Positions 20,676-53,462 of a stretch of DNA of 64,000 nucleotides are shown piece after piece (positions within the stretch are counted from its first letter, which is position 1; each line of letters starts with the position of its first letter). Source of the stretch: Minisyncoccota bacterium. GTDB lineage: Bacteria > Patescibacteriota > Minisyncoccia > Phycocordibacterales > UBA918. The DNA is taken from assembly GCA_018062385.1 (NCBI GenBank), contig JAGOSI010000001.1:5904-69903 (forward strand), read 5' to 3'. Under the pieces are notes generated by a model. That model searched no databases and was not told the DNA's origin. It saw only the letters and a list, made by a program, of their open reading frames with translations. Made by a program: the position numbers and the translations under genes.

Positions 20676-20972
20676 AAAACATTTAATTGACACACTATTT
20701 AATTACTAAGTAGTGTGTTTTTCCATTTATCAATTGCCAAAATAAATACTTAGTAGTACCATACTAAAGGAACCACATTAACGTATGTTCCGATTAAACA
20801 TTTATGCAGGGTCGCCAGCAGTCTCAAGAGGCCATGAGAATTCGCAAGAAATTTCAGACACCGCTTGGAAATGGTACCCACCTAGAGATTCTAGGAGCAT
20901 ACGTGGTGGTTCCCTTGAAAGTACGCCTCTTACGAGGTGTTTTTTCATGCCTTTTGGAGTAATATAAGTAGT

Positions 20973-21356
20973 ATGAAGACTTACTTCGGCCTAATTTTAT
21001 TCACCTCTTGGTTTTTGTTGGCCGTGCTCCATACTTTCTTCACAGTGTCTTGGTTGTACTGGTATTACACTTGGCTCGATATTCCCATGCATTTGTTTGG
21101 TGGTTTTTTAGTTATGACAACTTGGTTTTATTTTCGTAGTAAAAAGCCTTGGTTGATGGAGTTGTCTAAAAAACCGATCTTTAATCCGATATTTTTATTT
21201 ATTTTAATTATTATTGGTTGGGAAATTTTTCAATTAACTCTCGGTAAGCCTATTTCCAATAATTATGTCAATGACACCAGAACTGATTTGGTGATCGGCT
21301 TGATCGGTGGACTATTAAGTTATTTTTTCTTTTCTTCACGTACAATAGGAAAATAA
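20973..21356 (+). CDS. hypothetical small membrane protein (4 predicted TM helices, Trp/Phe-rich)
   Basis: ORF 20937-21356; likely start MKTYFGL; preceded by a terminator-like hairpin. Confidence 0.5.
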   Translation: MKTYFGLILFTSWFLLAVLHTFFTVSWLYWYYTWLDIPMHLFGGFLVMTTWFYFRSKKPWLMELSKKPIFNPIFLFILIIIGWEIFQLTLGKPISNNYVNDTRTDLVIGLIGGLLSYFFFSSRTIGK

Positions 21357-41498: not shown

Positions 41499-42191
41499 TT
41501 ACAACTCCCTCAATTTTTCTTCACTTACAATCACCCCATCTTCCATGTAAATAATGCGGTGAACACCCAAGGCGTATTCACGTTCGTGGGTTACCATCAC
41601 TACGGTTTGATGTTGTTCACGATTTAGCTTGGTAAGAAGCTCAATTATTTGTTCACCAGAGATACTGTCAAGATTTGCAGTTGGTTCATCAGCGAAAATA
41701 ATTTTTGGATTACTACCAATAGCGCGGGCAATAGCTACACGTTGCTGTTCTCCGCCAGAAAGCTCAGAAGGAAGGTTTAGATATTTGCCAGCTAGTCCGA
41801 CATCGTCAAGGGCCTTGTCTGATTTTTGGGTTGCCATTTCCCAGTCTTCACCCCGCATTAAAAGTGGCATCATGATATTTTCACGAGCTGATAAATCGGG
41901 AACGAGAGCATAATCTTGAAAAACATAACCCAGGGTATTGAGTCTGAATTCAGTTTTTTCTCTTTCGGAAAGATTTACAACATCAGTACCATCGACCACT
42001 ATCTCACCCTCGGTTGGTGTGTCTAAAACTGACAGTTGATACATAAGAGTAGATTTTCCAGCACCAGATTTTCCCATAATAGCTACAAATTCTCCCTCAC
42101 GAATATCTATATCAATACCACGCAAAACATGGGTGACCAGATTGTCTTTTCCAAACGACCTTTTGATATTTTTAGCGGTGATGATGTTCAT
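41499..42191 (-). CDS. ABC transporter ATP-binding protein (MacB/FtsE-like)
   Basis: GKSGAGKSTL, LSGGEQQRVAIARA, IIFADEPTANLD. Confidence 0.85.
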   Translation of the reverse strand: MNIITAKNIKRSFGKDNLVTHVLRGIDIDIREGEFVAIMGKSGAGKSTLMYQLSVLDTPTEGEIVVDGTDVVNLSEREKTEFRLNTLGYVFQDYALVPDLSARENIMMPLLMRGEDWEMATQKSDKALDDVGLAGKYLNLPSELSGGEQQRVAIARAIGSNPKIIFADEPTANLDSISGEQIIELLTKLNREQHQTVVMVTHEREYALGVHRIIYMEDGVIVSEEKLREL

Positions 42192-42192
42192 A

Positions 42193-43440
42193 TTATTTTC
42201 TACCTAAAATAGCATTGAGAGTATTTTGTTTGGCTATTAGCCAAGCGGGAATAAAACCAGCGATGAGGGTAATAATAAACAAAACAATAAATTTATAAAA
42301 TGTTGTTTCGGGATCAGCCGAAAGAATGCCATCACTGAAAGGGAATTGAATGGGATTTTTTTCAAAATAAGGAACCAAGAATCCGTAAGTTAAAAGTGCA
42401 CCAAGAGCTGAGCCAGACAAGGCGTAAAATGCAGCTTGAATTACATAGGCAATTTCAATCGCTTTTCGGTCGATACCGATTCCTTTCAAAATACCTATGT
42501 GTCTGCGTCTTGAAAGGGCGTTGATGAAAATAATAATAAAGATAGTAATTGAGGCCACGATAATACCAATTGAACCAATAAAAGTACCTAGAACATTAAA
42601 AGTGTTTTTTATATCGATTAAGAATTTAGGTAGATTTTCTTCATAAGTTAAAATCTTAGCGTAGGCATCAAGTCCGCTAGCTTTCATAGAAGCTACCACC
42701 GAAGCATTATCAGAAGGTTCTACGGTGCGGATCACAATTTGGTCGGCGTTCCGGTCTAGGCGATTAAAGAGGCGTCTAAATTCACGTTCAGGGATATAAG
42801 TAGCGAGATTGACTTCATCGACCTTTGATTCGATTATTCCTTTCACGATAAATTCTTTGGTAGTGTCGCCAACACTGAGACGTACAGTGTCGCCAGGGGA
42901 GATGTCAGACACAGTATCAAATACGTCACCAAATTGCTGGGCATATTCTTCGATGTAATAAATACCAATTAAAATATAACCCTCCTCATTGGGATTTAAA
43001 TATTCACCTTCGACTAATAAGTCGCCAAGGCCGGTCATGGCGTGTTCTTGAATTGGGTCAATACCAGTCACGGTTACAGCTGCAGTGTCTCGTTCACCAC
43101 TCAAGTCCCTCCGTTCTTTATAGTTGGCTTCTAGTGTCCCGCCACTTTTATAACGCACCGAATAAGTAGAGATCTCGGGATAGGTAGCAATCTCTCTAAT
43201 AAAGGAGTTGGTTTCTAAAATGTGATCTTGATCATCTAAGGTGGTGATAACAACATCACCGAGTGCGCTCTTTCGAACCGCTTGTTCAGCACCTTCAATC
43301 AGTCCGACTAAAATACCAGACACTGCAATTAAATTAAGAAAGGTCAGCATCATTACAAAGATGATTAGAGAGGTAGTCCACAGACTAGCTCGCTGAATTT
43401 GTCTAAGTCCTAGGAGTAAGCCGATGCGAAGACTGCGCAT
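42193..43440 (-). CDS. ABC transporter permease, FtsX/MacB-type (N-terminal TM, large extracytoplasmic domain, 3 C-terminal TM)
   Basis: Topology and position between the ATPase and adaptor genes. Confidence 0.7.
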   Translation of the reverse strand: MRSLRIGLLLGLRQIQRASLWTTSLIIFVMMLTFLNLIAVSGILVGLIEGAEQAVRKSALGDVVITTLDDQDHILETNSFIREIATYPEISTYSVRYKSGGTLEANYKERRDLSGERDTAAVTVTGIDPIQEHAMTGLGDLLVEGEYLNPNEEGYILIGIYYIEEYAQQFGDVFDTVSDISPGDTVRLSVGDTTKEFIVKGIIESKVDEVNLATYIPEREFRRLFNRLDRNADQIVIRTVEPSDNASVVASMKASGLDAYAKILTYEENLPKFLIDIKNTFNVLGTFIGSIGIIVASITIFIIIFINALSRRRHIGILKGIGIDRKAIEIAYVIQAAFYALSGSALGALLTYGFLVPYFEKNPIQFPFSDGILSADPETTFYKFIVLFIITLIAGFIPAWLIAKQNTLNAILGRK

Positions 43441-43444
43441 AATA

Positions 43445-44947
43445 TTATGGAGCGATTACTACGTCACCTTCATTTAGTCCTCCCACTTCCATAAAGCCGT
43501 CATTGCCAGTAAATAATACTTCTACACTAGAAGTGGCGGTCTGTCCTTCGACTAGTTTTAGAACCACTTGGCTACCATCAGTCAGTGTCGTAACAAATCT
43601 TTTTGGAATTCGTAAAACATTGTCTTTAGATTTTATAATAATATCAATGTCGGCATTTAATCCAGATCGAAGCCATGATGGGGTTTCGGCAAGTTCAATT
43701 ATGGTTTCAAAATAAGCTACGCCATCAATTTGGGTGGCGACTGGTGCTATGTAAATAATTTTACCAGTTAGTGTGTCTTGGCTTTGAGCATCAAAAATTG
43801 CTTCAACTGATTGATCGGTGGTAATTTTGGTAATGTCAATTTCGGGAACGCGAGCTTTGAGGGTGAAAGTATTATTGGCTAAAACAGTAATCACCGCCAC
43901 GGTAGGAGCGGCCTCACCTTTAGTGATAGAAACATTGGTTACTGTACCAGCAAAGGGAGCAACAATTGACCGATCACTAATTCTGGCGTCTATCGTTGCC
44001 ACTCTAGCTTCTGCTTGAGCAATGGTGGCGTTGGCTTTTGAAATCTCCTCGGTTCGGGCTGGGGCGGTTGATAGACCAGCTTCTTTTCTAGCTAAGTTTA
44101 AGGAATTTTCAGCGCTAGCAATGGAATTTTTAGCTTGAGTAATGGCTAAGGTGTAAGAATTATTTAAAGCGGTATAGTTGGCGCTCCTCGTGTTTGGAAT
44201 TTTTATTTCCCAATCTGAATCACTGTATAGATCTCCGGTAGTAAATTTTAAATATAAGCCACAGTTGCCGATAGGAGTGGGTTGATCGACACTTACTAAT
44301 CCGGTGCCTTTTTCTAATCCAGTATAGGTGTATGAATATCCTGACTCGCTACTGGAGCGATAAACGTGTAAATTATAAACCCCTTCCTTATCGCAAATAT
44401 AATTTCCAGTCACTGTGGGTGGTGTACTTTCTTCGTTTGGATCTAGAGCTAGGGAAGTAAGGTTGGTGGAGAAAAGTGCTGTACGGGCGTTTTCTACTTT
44501 ACGATTTTCTTCGATGATTACTCTAGCTAAATTGGCTTCGGCGTTTTTTATATTGGTATCAGCTACGGCGATGGTTTCGCTTCTGGGGCCAGCGGTGGTT
44601 TCGCGGTAGGCGGCGCGAGCGATAGCGAGCGCCGCCATGGCTTCATTTCTTTCGGCTACCAATTCGGTATTGGCTAGAGTAGCTAGTACTTCACCAGCTT
44701 TTACTGTCGATCCTTCTTCAATAAAAACATCAGTTACTATCCCTGTGCTTGGAAAAGCTAAGTCAGCCACTTGCTTGGCTTCAATAAAACCAGAAACTGA
44801 AACCAGATCAGTAACGTCACCTTTTTCGACAGTGGCAGTGATAAGATCTGGAGGTGGAGGGTTTAGATATTTAAAAACAAAAATACTAGCACTTAGTAAT
44901 AATATGGTAATTAAAACATTGGTGAAGTTAAATTTTAAAAAAGACAT
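43445..44947 (-). CDS. HlyD/MacA-family periplasmic adaptor (membrane fusion) protein
   Basis: N-terminal TM anchor, biotinyl/lipoyl-like hairpin motifs (...GEVLATLANTELVAERNEAMAALA...), long coiled coil, beta-barrel. Confidence 0.65.
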   Translation of the reverse strand: MSFLKFNFTNVLITILLLSASIFVFKYLNPPPPDLITATVEKGDVTDLVSVSGFIEAKQVADLAFPSTGIVTDVFIEEGSTVKAGEVLATLANTELVAERNEAMAALAIARAAYRETTAGPRSETIAVADTNIKNAEANLARVIIEENRKVENARTALFSTNLTSLALDPNEESTPPTVTGNYICDKEGVYNLHVYRSSSESGYSYTYTGLEKGTGLVSVDQPTPIGNCGLYLKFTTGDLYSDSDWEIKIPNTRSANYTALNNSYTLAITQAKNSIASAENSLNLARKEAGLSTAPARTEEISKANATIAQAEARVATIDARISDRSIVAPFAGTVTNVSITKGEAAPTVAVITVLANNTFTLKARVPEIDITKITTDQSVEAIFDAQSQDTLTGKIIYIAPVATQIDGVAYFETIIELAETPSWLRSGLNADIDIIIKSKDNVLRIPKRFVTTLTDGSQVVLKLVEGQTATSSVEVLFTGNDGFMEVGGLNEGDVVIAP

Positions 44948-44968
44948 TGCTCACATTGTAGCATTTTG

Positions 44969-45041
44969 TCCGCCAACTTGGACTCGAACCAAGGACCACA
45001 GAGGTATAAGCTCTGCGCTCTACCAACTGAGCTATTGGCGG
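44969..45041 (-). tRNA. tRNA with anticodon UAU (Ile-type, AUA-reading), C1-G72, A73, no encoded CCA
   Basis: Minus strand CCGCCAA-TA-GCTCAGTTGGTAGAGC-G-CAGAG-CTTATAC-CTCTG-TGGTC-CTTGG-TTCGAGT-CCAAG-TTGGCGG-A; cloverleaf parsed by eye. Confidence 0.65.
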
Positions 45042-45157
45042 AACACTCTTTATTTAGAGTGTTCAAACTATACCGCGATTTTGCGACTAACTCAATATAC
45101 AATAGGTCTTGCAATTTTTTTAAAATAAGATTAAATGTAAACAGTTTCAACCAGGAA

Positions 45158-45180
45158 AGGAGGTGATCCGCGTCCCCTGC
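45158..45180 (-). other. 16S rRNA 3'-terminus-like fragment (GGATCACCTCCTTTC, anti-SD region) on the same strand ~120 nt upstream of the tRNA; no rRNA gene attached
   Basis: Minus strand reads ...aaggtacaacaggcaggggacgcGGATCACCTCCTTTCctgg, resembling the 16S end ...AAGGTAGCCGTAGGGGAACCTGCGGCTGGATCACCTCCTTTCT. Confidence 0.4.
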
Positions 45181-45360
45181 CTGTTGTACCTTATCAGGCC
45201 ACTAAGCGACTCAAATTTTTTGAGTCGCTTTTCTTATTCCAAATTAGGCTAAACCTTATCAACATAAACGACTGTTTTACCAGTCGTTTTGTGTTTTTTA
45301 CCGATATAATACCGTCAGATGTACCCAGTCTTTAAAAACCCAAGAAATTTAATAATTGAT

Positions 45361-47454
45361 ATGATAAAAAAACTCACCCTCGGCCTCTTAGTTTTGGTCG
45401 TTGGTTTTACCGGTACGAATTTTACAAATCTTGCAGAAGCGCAAACTGCTGACAGTAATTGTCTACTTCCTGTAAGTAGCGTGAATATTGTTACTTGCAA
45501 CTCTAGTCAAAACCCTGTTCCTGCTACTATTGATAGCAATGGTTATAAATATAATCCTGGACACTATGTATTAGTAGCAGCTTATAATGCAAAGCTATTA
45601 GATGATAACCCAAACATTGCAACTGATGGTGATGCATTCATGCGTTCTATAAAAGATTCCGGCGTGAAGGGGATTATGGTACGCTATAATTGGTATGATT
45701 TAGAGAAGGCTAAAAATGATTATTCACCATTAAATAGAGTGAAAAAACATATTGATTTAGCACATAAATTTGGACTCAAATTTATAATCTTGATTGAAGA
45801 CAAGGCCTTTCAAGGTTTAGAGTCACCTCTACCAGATTATCTTAAGTCTAATCCAGATTATTCCTATAAAAATGTTACAAACAGTTACAATGCCACTAGA
45901 TGGAATGCTTTTGTACACGAAAGAACCAAAGCCCTAGTTAACAAGCTCGGTGAAACTTTCGATGCACATCCAGCTTTAGAAGGTATTGGTTTTAATGAAA
46001 CTGCAACCAATCTACCAGCTGGCACAGTTACTACACCACCATACGACCCTGTGCTTTATCGTGACTATATAATTGATTTATTAAAGACTAGTTCCGTTGC
46101 TTTTCCAAATTCAAGGATATTTTGGTACATGAATTACCTGCAACCAGGTTATTCAAAGGGGGTGTATCTTGATAATAAAAAGACGCAAGCTTTCTTGGGT
46201 GATATAGGTGAAATTATGGTTGATTATCCAAATGTCACCATTGGAAGTCCAGATATACTGCCTGAGGACAATTCGATTGTAACTAGAGTAGAACCTCTAT
46301 TTGATAAATTCCACGGACTTGGTATAAAACTCTTCGGTTCAATGCAAAATGCTAGTTATCGAGAGATTCATGCGACTGCTACTCGATCAATGTATCAAAC
46401 CCTGTATTGGACACCTCTAGAAATGTTCCAGTATGGTCGCGACAACTTCCATGCACAATATATGTTTTGGAATTATAAAACATGGTTAACTGAAGGTATG
46501 CCAGCAGGAGAGTATCGTTGGGAAGATGCTATTCCAGTGATTAAGGCTAATCCAGTATTTAATCCAACCGCACCGCAAAGATTTGCTAAAAATCAAAGAG
46601 TACAAACTAATGACAGTGGTGTAAATGTAAGATCTACTTCAACTTTAGCGGTTCTTGGTACTCAAGCACTAAGTCGACCAGGTACTATCCTTCTTGATTC
46701 TTATCGTCACAATCTCAATGGTACTGCTATGACTAACAATCAGTGGTGGAAAGTTAACTTTGACACCGGAGTAGACGGTTTGGTAAATGATGCTTTACTT
46801 AGTCCTTTAGGTACACCACCAAGCACCTCATTACCTGATGTCATTGTCACTGCCTTAAACTACAACCAAACCACCCACACCTTCACTGTCGTGGTAAAAA
46901 ACCAAGGTACTGCAGCGACCCCAGCTGACACTGTTATTGGTGTCGGCTACCTCGTCAATGGAGTACAAAGAACTTGGGGTAAATCAATCCTGCCACTAGC
47001 TCCTGGCGCTTCAGTCACTATCGGTACTAGCCTTACTGGAGATGGGGCTGGCCCATACACTATCCCAAATGGTACTCACAACATCCGAGCTTGGGTCGAT
47101 GATGTAAACCGCTTTGCAGAATCTAATGAACAAAATAATGATCTAATAAAATCAATCACTGTTGGTGGAGGTACTTCAGTAAATGTTCCTCCAACTATCT
47201 CTGGAACATCATCTACAAGAGTTGTTAGAAATACACTTTACAGCTTTACACCAAGAGCTACTGATTCTAATGGTGACGTTTTGACTTTTTCTATTCAAAA
47301 TAAACCAGCTTGGGCAACTTTCGATACTGGTACAGGTCGATTGAGAGGTACTCCAACAGGTCTAGCAACTTACAGTAATATCCGTATTTCTGTAACAGAC
47401 GGTAAATCAACCCCTGTTTCATTGCCGGCCTTTACCATTACTGTAACTAGGTAG
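45361..47454 (+). CDS. large secreted multidomain surface protein: N-terminal putative glycoside-hydrolase-like domain, SH3b-like, CARDB domain, cadherin-like/putative Ig domain
   Basis: Signal peptide MIKKLTLGLLVLVVGFTG...; CARDB-like segment VIVTALNYNQTTHTFTVVVKNQGTAATPADTVIGVGYLVNG...; PPTISGTSSTRVVRNTLYSFTPRATDSNGDVLTFS = cadherin-like domain. Confidence 0.55.
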   Translation: MIKKLTLGLLVLVVGFTGTNFTNLAEAQTADSNCLLPVSSVNIVTCNSSQNPVPATIDSNGYKYNPGHYVLVAAYNAKLLDDNPNIATDGDAFMRSIKDSGVKGIMVRYNWYDLEKAKNDYSPLNRVKKHIDLAHKFGLKFIILIEDKAFQGLESPLPDYLKSNPDYSYKNVTNSYNATRWNAFVHERTKALVNKLGETFDAHPALEGIGFNETATNLPAGTVTTPPYDPVLYRDYIIDLLKTSSVAFPNSRIFWYMNYLQPGYSKGVYLDNKKTQAFLGDIGEIMVDYPNVTIGSPDILPEDNSIVTRVEPLFDKFHGLGIKLFGSMQNASYREIHATATRSMYQTLYWTPLEMFQYGRDNFHAQYMFWNYKTWLTEGMPAGEYRWEDAIPVIKANPVFNPTAPQRFAKNQRVQTNDSGVNVRSTSTLAVLGTQALSRPGTILLDSYRHNLNGTAMTNNQWWKVNFDTGVDGLVNDALLSPLGTPPSTSLPDVIVTALNYNQTTHTFTVVVKNQGTAATPADTVIGVGYLVNGVQRTWGKSILPLAPGASVTIGTSLTGDGAGPYTIPNGTHNIRAWVDDVNRFAESNEQNNDLIKSITVGGGTSVNVPPTISGTSSTRVVRNTLYSFTPRATDSNGDVLTFSIQNKPAWATFDTGTGRLRGTPTGLATYSNIRISVTDGKSTPVSLPAFTITVTR

Positions 47455-49682: not shown

Positions 49683-49836
49683 TCCTACTATGGTAACAGA
49701 TTTATGTAAATGAAGGGCGAGGGAAGTTTGGTTTTAGTGCTTGCATTTATTTAATATCTATGATATAGTTTTCTACGGTCTGGTTTTTGCGACCAATTTT
49801 CTAAATTTTTTTTTCTAAATTTTTTGGAGGTTGTAA

Positions 49837-50522
49837 ATGAAAAAGCTCTTTTTAGCTTTAATAACAAGTCTGATGTTTGTTGGTGTAGCTCATGCTTTAC
49901 CACAATATGAATTTATAGGGGGTACAGAAACCATTTTCGACAGAAGCAACACCTTTGGAATACTGTCTGAAGGGCAGACAGCAAGTGGGGTCAATATTGA
50001 CCGCACTAGTAGTTATGCATCTTGGTGTTTTCTGAGCCAACGCAAGTATCATTTAATACCTTAGTCAACACCATACCGTTGGCAGAAGGGGTTGTTGGTA
50101 TCACTAATGATGTACATGTTCCTGGGAGGATATTTTCTAATGACGACACAGCATTGACTCTGTCGCCACTTCAAGGGGCGTACTATATGTGGGTCACAGA
50201 CTATAAAGTCTCTGACCCGAATGTGGTAGAGACATCGTGGTCTCTAAGTCGTGGAGGTCCAAGCGATCCCATGATTGCTGATCCAATGTGGTCGCTCATT
50301 GGATTGGGTGACAACTCATTTTTGAGTATCTTTCAGTTTGATCAAGGAAACTCATCAGCTGGTATGTGGGTGGCCGAGGTGAGTATGCCCGCTATTTCAC
50401 CCGTTCCCGAACCTGAGACCTATGCCATGTTGCTGATCGGACTTGGATTCATTGCTTTCGCTGTTCGTAAACAGCGGAAAGATAATGGCAATGAGTCTTT
50501 ATTTGTTCCGGTGGGGGCTTAG
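49837..50522 (+). pseudogene. PEP-CTERM sorting-domain protein, interrupted by a frameshift near 50022-50064 (pseudogene or sequencing error)
   Basis: ORF 49837-50064 has signal peptide MKKLFLALITSLMFVGVAHA; overlapping -1-frame ORF 50022-50522 ends with PVPEPETYAMLLIGLGFIAFAVRKQRK (PEP motif + TM + basic tail). Confidence 0.55.
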
Positions 50523-50639
50523 GCCACCAAGGCCAAAAATAGCCGCATTTTTAATTTATTAAAAATGCGGCTTTATTTTTTGGTTTTTTATTTAGCTAAG
50601 CAATTAGTGTTATACTATTCATCACATTAATTTTTTAGT

Positions 50640-51806
50640 ATGCCAACACCAAAGAAAACCACGATCAAGAAAAAAGACTACAATCAGCTGGCTTTAGCTG
50701 TTCATAAAAAACTTAAAGGGAAGTTGGGTGTGGTGAGTAAAGGTAGTCTAAAAACCAAAGATGATTGGAGCACTCTCTATACTCCTGGAGTTGGAGCAGT
50801 ATCAATGCATTTAGCTAAGCATCCAAAAGACGCTCGTCTATACACGATAAAAAATAATACCGTAGCGGTAATTTCGGATGGTTCAGCAGTTTTAGGATTA
50901 GGTAATATTGGAGCTATCGCGGCTTTGCCAGTAATGGAAGGTAAGTGTGCGATCTTTAAAGAAATGGCGGGTGTGGATGCTTTTCCGATTGTACTCAATA
51001 CACAAGATACAGAAGAAATTATTAAAGTAGTAAAAGCTATTGCACCAACTTTTGGTGGTATTAATCTCGAGGATATCTCAGCTCCGAAGTGTTTTATTAT
51101 TGAGGAACGTTTAAAGAAAGAATTAGATATTCCCGTGATTCACGATGATCAGCATGGTACAGCGATCGTGGTTTTAGCAGGACTAATCAATGCTTCTAAA
51201 GTGGTAGGTAAAAAGCTGGAGAACCTAAAGGTGGTAATTGTAGGTGCGGGAGCGGCTGGAAGAGCGATAGCCTTGCTTTTGAAATTAGCGGGTATAAATA
51301 ATGTAATTATAACTGATACCAAAGGGGTGATTTATAGAGGTCGGAGTGGACTTGAGGGCTACAAACGCCATTTATCTGAAGTGACAAATCCAGAGCGAAT
51401 ACAAGGTGATGTTATGAGTGCTGTGGTAGGAGCAGATGTGATTATTGGTGTGTCGGGGCCAGGTACGATCGCCAAAGCCCATATAGAAGCCATGGCCGAA
51501 AAGGCTATCGTTTTTGCGATGGCTAATCCTATACCAGAGATTATGCCTAATGATGCGCTTCAAGCGGGGGCGATGGTGGTGGCAACTGGTAGGTCCGACT
51601 ATCCAAATCAGGTTAATAACGCCCTGGCTTTCCCTGGCTTATTTAGAGGGGCATTAGATAAGAAAGTAAAAAATATCACTGATGAAATGAAAATTGTTGC
51701 GGCTAAAAAAATCGCCGCTTTAGTCAAGAAACCAACGGCTGAAAATATTATTCCCTCAGTGATGACCGAAGGTCTTGTGAAGGCGGTTGCGAGTGCAGTC
51801 AAGTAA
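50640..51806 (+). CDS. maeA: NAD(P)-dependent malic enzyme (small form)
   Basis: YTPGVGAVSMHLAKHP...VISDGSAVLGLGNIGAIAALPVMEGKCAIFKEMAGVDAFPIVLN...VVIVGAGAAGRAIA. Confidence 0.85.
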   Translation: MPTPKKTTIKKKDYNQLALAVHKKLKGKLGVVSKGSLKTKDDWSTLYTPGVGAVSMHLAKHPKDARLYTIKNNTVAVISDGSAVLGLGNIGAIAALPVMEGKCAIFKEMAGVDAFPIVLNTQDTEEIIKVVKAIAPTFGGINLEDISAPKCFIIEERLKKELDIPVIHDDQHGTAIVVLAGLINASKVVGKKLENLKVVIVGAGAAGRAIALLLKLAGINNVIITDTKGVIYRGRSGLEGYKRHLSEVTNPERIQGDVMSAVVGADVIIGVSGPGTIAKAHIEAMAEKAIVFAMANPIPEIMPNDALQAGAMVVATGRSDYPNQVNNALAFPGLFRGALDKKVKNITDEMKIVAAKKIAALVKKPTAENIIPSVMTEGLVKAVASAVK

Positions 51807-53257: not shown

Positions 53258-53263
53258 GGGGTG

Positions 53264-53351
53264 CGGAGGATGTGAGATTCGAACTCACGGACCCGTTTAA
53301 AGGTCGACAGTTTAGTAAACTGTTGGTTTAAACCACTCACCCAATCCTCCT
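53264..53351 (-). tRNA. type II (long variable arm) tRNA, Ser-like (G73), apparent anticodon ACU in loop UUACUAA, non-canonical
   Basis: Minus strand GGAGGAT-TG-GGT-GAGTGGTTTAA-ACC-A-ACAGT-TTACTAA-ACTGT-CGACCTTTAAACGGGTC-CGTGAG/GTGAG-TTCGAAT-CTCAC-ATCCTCC-G. Confidence 0.5.
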
Positions 53352-53373
53352 TATTTATATTGCTCAACTCTTT

Positions 53374-53462
53374 GGCGGAGACGCAGGGATTCGAACCCTG
53401 GAGGGTTTTAACACCCTACTTCGTTAGCAGTGAAGCGCTTTCGACCACTCAGCCACGTCTCC
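53374..53462 (-). tRNA. tRNA-Ser(GCU), type II, CCA encoded
   Basis: Minus strand GGAGACG-TG-GCT-GAGTGGTCGAA-AGC-G-CTTCA-CTGCTAA-CGAAG-TAGGGTGTTAAAACCCTCC-AGGG-TTCGAAT-CCCT-GCGTCTCC-G-CCA. Confidence 0.8.

Follow-up and report, generated by a model that had tools for sequence, protein, structure and literature searches.

A predicted PEP-CTERM surface-protein gene of a Paceibacteria lineage and its frameshift allele

The locus and its host

The window, by which we mean the whole 64-kb stretch of DNA that was analysed, carries on its forward strand, at positions 49837-50522, a gene for a predicted secreted protein that is divided between two reading frames. The upstream part, ORF1 (49837-50064), encodes 75 aa and begins with MKKLFLALITSLMFVGVAHA|LPQYEF, in which a basic n-region precedes a hydrophobic core and the cleavage motif AHA. 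These features correspond to a Sec signal peptide of 20 codons (49837-49896) with predicted cleavage after AHA, which is followed by the first 42 residues of the ectodomain and then, out of frame, by 13 codons (WCFLSQRKYHLIP) that run to a stop. The remainder of the gene lies in the -1 frame (50013-50522), which encodes ...SPVPEPETYAMLLIGLGFIAFAVRKQRK and ends with ...SMPAISPVPEPETYAMLLIGLGFIAFAVRKQRKDNGNESLFVPVGA; it comprises ectodomain residues 63-185, the PEP-CTERM domain, a tail and the stop codon at 50520-50522. The overlap of the two frames extends over 50013-50064 and is therefore longer than the 50022-50064 initially reported. When a single missing A is restored in the window sequence, one protein of 228 aa results, which is 95% identical to its relative P0001.

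The 5' leader of the gene (49800-49836) contains two copies of a polymorphic direct repeat (TCTAAATTTTTT), a T9 run (49806-49814) and a Shine-Dalgarno sequence, GGAGG (49826-49830), located 7 nt 5' of the ORF1 ATG; no Shine-Dalgarno sequence was found before the first GTG or TTG of the -1 frame. Downstream, an intrinsic terminator (50541-50582) is formed by a 14-bp stem with a 4-nt loop (50541-50572) and a subsequent T-run, with a folding z of -5.2. The gene therefore makes up a self-contained, monocistronic transcription unit. The opposite strand of the gene contains no ORF longer than 51 codons. The leader itself varies between alleles at 49800-49825, where one 14-nt repeat copy is missing (contigs L001 and L006) or T5GTT is present (L003 and L004), and such variants could modulate expression.

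Which organism carries this gene? The window contains genes for ribosomal proteins, SecY, FtsH and Lgt, as well as a type IV pilus cluster, at a GC content of 39%. Its RecG is 92% identical to that of 'Parcubacteria bacterium OLB19', and the matches that follow OLB19, 79 of the best 80 loci, come almost all from Paceibacteria, Parcubacteria, Kaiserbacteria and Nomurabacteria MAGs. Judging from these RecG matches, the host is a member of the Paceibacteria (CPR/Patescibacteria) close to OLB19, a recognised Patescibacteriota genus (PMC12931201). The original prediction had called a PEP-CTERM system noteworthy here, and the host is indeed an unexpected one. The annotated genes of the window include no EPS locus, and in its pilus cluster (pilM, pilO-like, pilB, pilT, pilC, prepilin peptidase and pilins) no secretin is annotated. 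CPR bacteria are usually taken to be epibionts with a single membrane and no outer one.

Two other features of the neighbourhood were recorded. The region just past recG (41499-47454) encodes a MacB-type ABC/FtsX/HlyD-like trio together with a surface protein of 711 aa that has CARDB and He_PIG domains, and these genes are conserved as neighbours of the PEP-CTERM gene in the relatives. On the reverse strand, the window encodes a tRNA-Ser with the anticodon ACU (53263-53350; A at position 34) and a tRNA-Ile with the anticodon UAU (44968-45041), both unusual in bacteria; the former adjoins a normal tRNA-Ser(GCU) at 53373-53462.

A circulating frameshift allele and a recombinant 3' cassette

Same-species contigs (n = 6) were retrieved by the exact sequence of the neighbouring malic enzyme (50640-51806). 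Four of them carry the gene without interruption, annotated as 229 aa in three cases and, with its start placed further downstream, as 217 aa in L001; the other two show the same split into 75 and 165 aa as the window. The intact alleles originate from NCBI GCA_021733565.1 (L001), ENA (L003 and L004) and Logan (L006), and all of these contigs encode an identical malic enzyme. DNA alignments with these four contigs placed the lesion between positions 50021 and 50022, where the intact alleles have an A between the two bases (GCATCATTGG): the intact GCATCATTGGTG corresponds to GCATC-TTGGTG in the window, a difference of one base. Attention had first been drawn to the T4 homopolymer at 50028-50031, but this run is invariant in all alleles and the deletion lies 6 nt upstream of it, outside any homopolymer. 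A phase-variable gene of the simple-sequence contingency type was considered and rejected, given that the base lost is an isolated A within CATCATT and that T4 does not vary. As for GCA_021733565.1, which includes L001 (JAKFZD010002776) and L193 (JAKFZD010001563), it consists of thousands of contigs, odd for a CPR genome of ~1 Mb, which suggests a whole-metagenome or mixed assembly.

An important question is whether the frameshift is real, could be an error of sequencing or assembly that conceals a gene intact in the organism, or is bypassed during translation. Single-base indels are common in assemblies and a T4 run lies 6 nt away, and an error had been one of the two options of the original prediction. 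However, the 75-aa ORF1 product with the same 1-nt deletion occurs on at least eight other contigs from different runs and at least three projects (Logan SRR25018317, SRR25018318, SRR25018358 and SRR11088468; NCBI GCA_020054605, GCA_020047435 and GCA_020049675). Seven of eight such contigs are 100% identical to the window over 686 nt, and the eighth, L103, combines the deletion and the 5' SNPs of the window with the 3' end of the other allele, so that the deletion is tied to a SNP haplotype of its own and, once, to another 3' cassette. An error would produce neither an identical deletion in independent assemblies at a non-repetitive site nor its recombination, which makes this explanation highly improbable; the frameshift is a natural null allele that circulates alongside intact ones. 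Leaky or programmed recoding appears very unlikely as well. A -1 slip of tRNA-Phe on U_UUU (50028-50031) would restore the frame at the cost of only Leu-Val becoming Trp-Cys, since the frame-0 TTT at 50029-50031 can re-pair with the TTT at 50028-50030 and the next codons, TCT-GAG..., are those of the intact protein; such a slip might therefore yield a trace of full-length product. Nevertheless, neither a canonical X_XXY_YYZ heptamer nor a downstream stimulatory structure (z = 0.03) is present, the intact allele can do without a slip, in the relatives the gene forms one ORF, and the frameshift haplotype bears no sign of being an ancestral or conserved state. The other initial option, a decaying gene, applies to this strain only: there are intact alleles beside it, and purifying selection acts strongly on the sorting signal.

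One further truncated form was found in the family, namely P0143, a 90-aa version of a P0136-type orthologue on contig L106 (ENA ERZ27320627 NODE_2987). Because this contig has only 3.8x coverage and its recG is also split, P0143 was discounted as a second, recurrent inactivation and probably reflects an assembly error.

Comparison of the alleles also revealed a recombinant 3' cassette at 50348-50500, in which 46 substitutions and a 3-nt indel within 153 nt (~30%) separate the window from the other same-species allele. In the 511 nt upstream of the cassette, the same-species alleles differ by 3 substitutions, and identity returns 3' of it. At the protein level, the window cassette is the same as in P0002, from a more distant species, and P0001 is a further mosaic. 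Between the two cassettes, the PEP core (27 codons) shows a pS of 0.83 at a pN of 0.058; for the ectodomain, between species, pN reaches 0.23-0.50 at a pS of 0.70-0.73. In 11 family members, V190, P191, E192, P193, T195, G202 and L203 are invariant, whereas the ectodomains are only 24-40% identical. Purifying selection on the PEP core is thus strong, and in this fast-evolving surface protein no other part is as constrained as the sorting signal. This constraint exceeds what a plain hydrophobic anchor needs.

The protein family, its sorting signal and the search for an exosortase

A word-indexed search of 5.8 billion proteins returned five full-length relatives (95, 73, 69, 42 and 36% identity), all other matches being restricted to the tail and belonging to ordinary proteobacterial PEP-CTERM proteins. 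When 1.84 billion representatives were searched exhaustively with a profile, 5617 matches reached E <= 0.001, but only ~10 clusters have the ectodomain in common: P0002, P0005, P0136, P0137, P0138, P0148, P0207 and the truncated P0143 and P0146. With an HMM of the ectodomain only, nothing beyond these clusters appeared among the best 150 matches. By these sequence searches, the passenger domain is an orphan with no homologue outside the clade. Also noted were high-GC predicted 'polyproteins' of 900-2500 aa (P0139, P0140, P0141, P0142, P0147, P0151 and P0157, all from outside the window) with 4-10 tandem modules, each of which has a PEP-CTERM domain at its end that continues into the signal peptide of the following module without a stop codon.

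The fold of the ectodomain was predicted with AlphaFold2 from ten family sequences (mean pLDDT 78.8), an earlier model from 5 sequences having been set aside (pLDDT 52.9). In the model, an all-beta sandwich spans residues 21-185 (pLDDT 75-94), a single long helix that would correspond to the TM segment covers residues 193-216, and the tail is disordered. A Foldseek comparison of the model with the PDB gave nothing significant; the resemblance of the predicted ectodomain to the fucose-binding lectin fold of LecB (PA-IIL) and thrombocorticin is weak, with marginal scores and an identity of 10-11%.

In at least seven lineages, the gene lies between a divergent recG and the malic-enzyme gene. This position was seen in the window species, the P0003 species (including a 993-kb contig), P0005, P0136, OLB19 (L012) and L014 (a 594-kb contig); one member, P0148, is instead found next to RNase III. 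Across the loci of ~60 Paceibacteria species in which this gene pair is retained (L012-L091), the recG/malic-enzyme gap is empty (37-153 nt) in 11, many of the non-empty gaps measure ~0.8-1.3 kb, and others are larger, up to 4.5 kb, and hold unrelated small genes. The gap is a site of variable insertions. It is occupied in one other species of the Paceibacteria by an orphan secreted protein (L050:5261-5956, reverse strand; CAZZPW010000006.1) with a sorting signal of a different type, VPLPA-CTERM (TIGR03370, 42 bits at a cut-off of 25.35); no relatives of this protein were found among 5.8 billion proteins. The occurrence of two flavours of signal at one site argues that exosortase-type signals are used, and not just tolerated, in these CPR cells.

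The PEP-CTERM sorting domain of the window gene (50400-50480) consists of the motif SPVPEPETY, the TM helix AMLLIGLGFIAFAV and the basic cluster RKQRK, and its PEP core almost matches the common proteobacterial consensus SPVPEPETYAMLLAGLGL. The tail region matched Pfam PF07589 with an E of 2.6e-9 and 37.2 bits (gathering threshold 20.7) and TIGR02595 with 24.7 bits (cut-off 16), and did not match LPXTG models; the curated PEP-CTERM cut-offs were also passed by the relatives P0004, P0005, L012 and L014. These scores, together with the signal peptide in ORF1, confirm the initial suggestion of a tripartite PEP-CTERM signal on a frameshifted, Sec-secreted protein. The signal peptide is kept in the intact alleles and in every family member; in the window, the frameshift separates it from the domain. 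The protein had been thought to end with RKQRK, but this cluster is followed by 13 further residues, DNGNESLFVPVGA, and a stop (50481-50522), which constitute a predicted cytoplasmic tail. Hence, the domain does not occupy the extreme C-terminus, and in all family members 9-18 aa extend past the basic cluster, often with a hydrophobic end.

Does the genome contain other proteins of this kind? A six-frame regex scan of the 64-kb window detected the PEP-CTERM motif once, in this gene, and P0003 was the only family member from the 993-kb contig among the database matches, which included no other protein with a similar cassette. Thus, no second PEP-CTERM protein was detectable by the motif scan of the window and the database matches, through which divergent paralogues could escape.

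The search for a cognate enzyme covered ~80 kb around the gene, of a genome of ~1 Mb, and in this region no exosortase was recognised by PF09721 or the NCBIfam Xrt models. Three multi-TM ORFs of the window that bear no annotation (744-1277, 1779-2303 and 20937-21356) had no Pfam or NCBIfam match and none to an exosortase model or profile, and PF09721 was absent from the Pfam labels of the genes within 10 kb in five related lineages and of those beyond both window ends. As a further query we used xrtV from a plasmid of Novosphingobium sp. ES2-1 (L095:12757-13638), one of the plasmids that carry the PEP-CTERM tail. Neither the XrtV sequence nor a 25-sequence XrtV profile nor hhalign gave a match, whether within the window or across 1.2 Mb of related CPR loci, and the matches listed in a database search with XrtV were 120 close XrtV relatives that did not reach CPR. 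In a metagenome scan, the matches listed were to PEP-CTERM at domain level and came from other bacteria; three of the loci concerned carry XrtV/B-like exosortases, and none of them is CPR. Multi-TM ORFs of related loci were also considered as candidates and proved to be TauE, ZIP, ABC-3 and YgjV. In the library searched, no paper was found that connects exosortase or PEP-CTERM with CPR bacteria.

Interpretation and comparison with known systems

We consider it fairly probable that the locus represents a variable surface-protein gene whose product is held, and likely processed, through PEP-CTERM, and which is present here as a loss-of-function allele. The intact gene would give a protein of 228-229 aa, exported by Sec via its signal peptide. 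Its ectodomain of ~165 residues would be a lineage-specific, fast-evolving beta-sandwich, weakly LecB-like according to the model, through which the protein may mediate adhesion. The PEP-CTERM domain and the short cytoplasmic tail would hold the protein in the membrane, and the domain most likely also marks it for processing, the PEP motif presumably being recognised by a transpeptidase of the exosortase type whose gene lies in another part of the genome. Such an enzyme is plausible because exosortase-family enzymes work in single-membrane cells, as in the case of archaeosortase A. In the genome studied here, since one A is lost after codon 61, at most a 75-aa product would be made, leaving a 55-aa secreted stub after cleavage; most of the ectodomain and the sorting signal would remain unmade. 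This allele circulates and recombines alongside intact ones.

It is possible, if rather doubtful, that the domain is instead a plain anchor or a relic that came from a diderm donor, whether together with the gene or as a separate module, and that serves as a TM anchor only, with neither exosortase nor cleavage. This would agree with the negative exosortase searches in ~80 kb and in the flanks of relatives, with the single copy of the gene in the data searched, with the extra 9-18 aa after the basic cluster in all members, with the near-identity of the PEP core to the proteobacterial consensus, and with a gene GC that exceeds the locus GC by 1-6 points. On the other hand, a mere anchor would need neither an invariant VPEP-T (V190, P191, E192, P193 and T195) nor a pN of 0.058 at saturated pS, the VPLPA-CTERM protein at the same spot in another species suggests that these cells make use of such signals, and the exosortase negative spans just ~8-10% of the genome. 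The proteobacterial character of the PEP-CTERM core could also point to a proteobacterial fragment mis-joined into a CPR contig, but we give almost no credence to contamination or a chimera of this kind: it is refuted by synteny, as the order recG, PEP-CTERM gene and malic enzyme recurs in many independent assemblies of at least seven diverged lineages, including the 993-kb and 594-kb contigs, and moreover the GC of the gene is near the genome value and nothing homologous to the ectodomain was found beyond the clade. A more unusual idea, which we regard as unlikely, is that the CPR clade uses PEP-CTERM and VPLPA-CTERM without a recognisable exosortase of its own, either through a new, unrelated sorting enzyme in a single-membrane cell or because the signals match the sorting machinery or the EPS matrix of a proteobacterial host. 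If the signals did match those of a host, the small lectin-like protein would be a host-tethering adhesin, and the frameshift loss and the cassette swaps would reflect host switching or phage/host pressure.

The significance of the gene lies in the taxonomic reach of the signal. In a Patescibacteria clade, a PEP-CTERM protein has been conserved vertically, keeps its synteny and shows selection, and a relative has VPLPA-CTERM at the same site. Exosortase-type signals thus extend into a phylum thought to be single-membrane and epibiotic. If a cognate enzyme exists, it would offer a handle on the attachment of CPR surface proteins; if it is absent, the conservation of the PEP motif will have to be explained in some new way. 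As a strain-level null allele the frameshift is nothing out of the ordinary, yet it illustrates cleanly how a CPR surface protein can vary by presence or absence and recombine by cassettes.

As defined by Haft et al. 2006, PEP-CTERM is found only in outer-membrane bacteria with EPS genes, is always accompanied by an EpsH-family exosortase, usually occurs in many copies per genome (median 8), and is followed by a median of 3 residues, with fewer than 10 in 87% of cases (PMC1569441). The protein described here resembles the substrates of the PEP-CTERM/exosortase system (EpsH, XrtA) in having a signal peptide, an orphan, fast-evolving passenger and the succession of PEP motif, TM helix and basic cluster. 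It departs from the system of Gram-negative EPS producers in that the CPR host is presumed to have a single membrane, that one copy was detected compared with a median of 8, that the tail has 13 aa compared with a median of 3, and that no exosortase or EPS locus was found nearby. VPLPA-CTERM (TIGR03370) is a sister exosortase-type signal, present at the same spot in L050 with a different motif and passenger and absent from the window. In monoderm-like cells, LPXTG/sortase is the system usually expected; it shares with our protein the arrangement of motif, TM helix and basic tail, but the motif here is PEP and not LPXTG. In haloarchaea, PGF-CTERM proteins are the substrates of archaeosortase A (ArtA), and after C-terminal processing the surface protein is reportedly tethered to the single membrane, as is said to have been described by Haft in 2012 and Abdul Halim in 2013. 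This system differs from ours in that its motif is PGF and not PEP, its enzyme is known in haloarchaea, and its passenger domains are unrelated in sequence. It nevertheless shares an exosortase-family signal in a cell presumed to lack an outer membrane and, by analogy, PGF-CTERM/ArtA is the most plausible functional analogue for the CPR cell.
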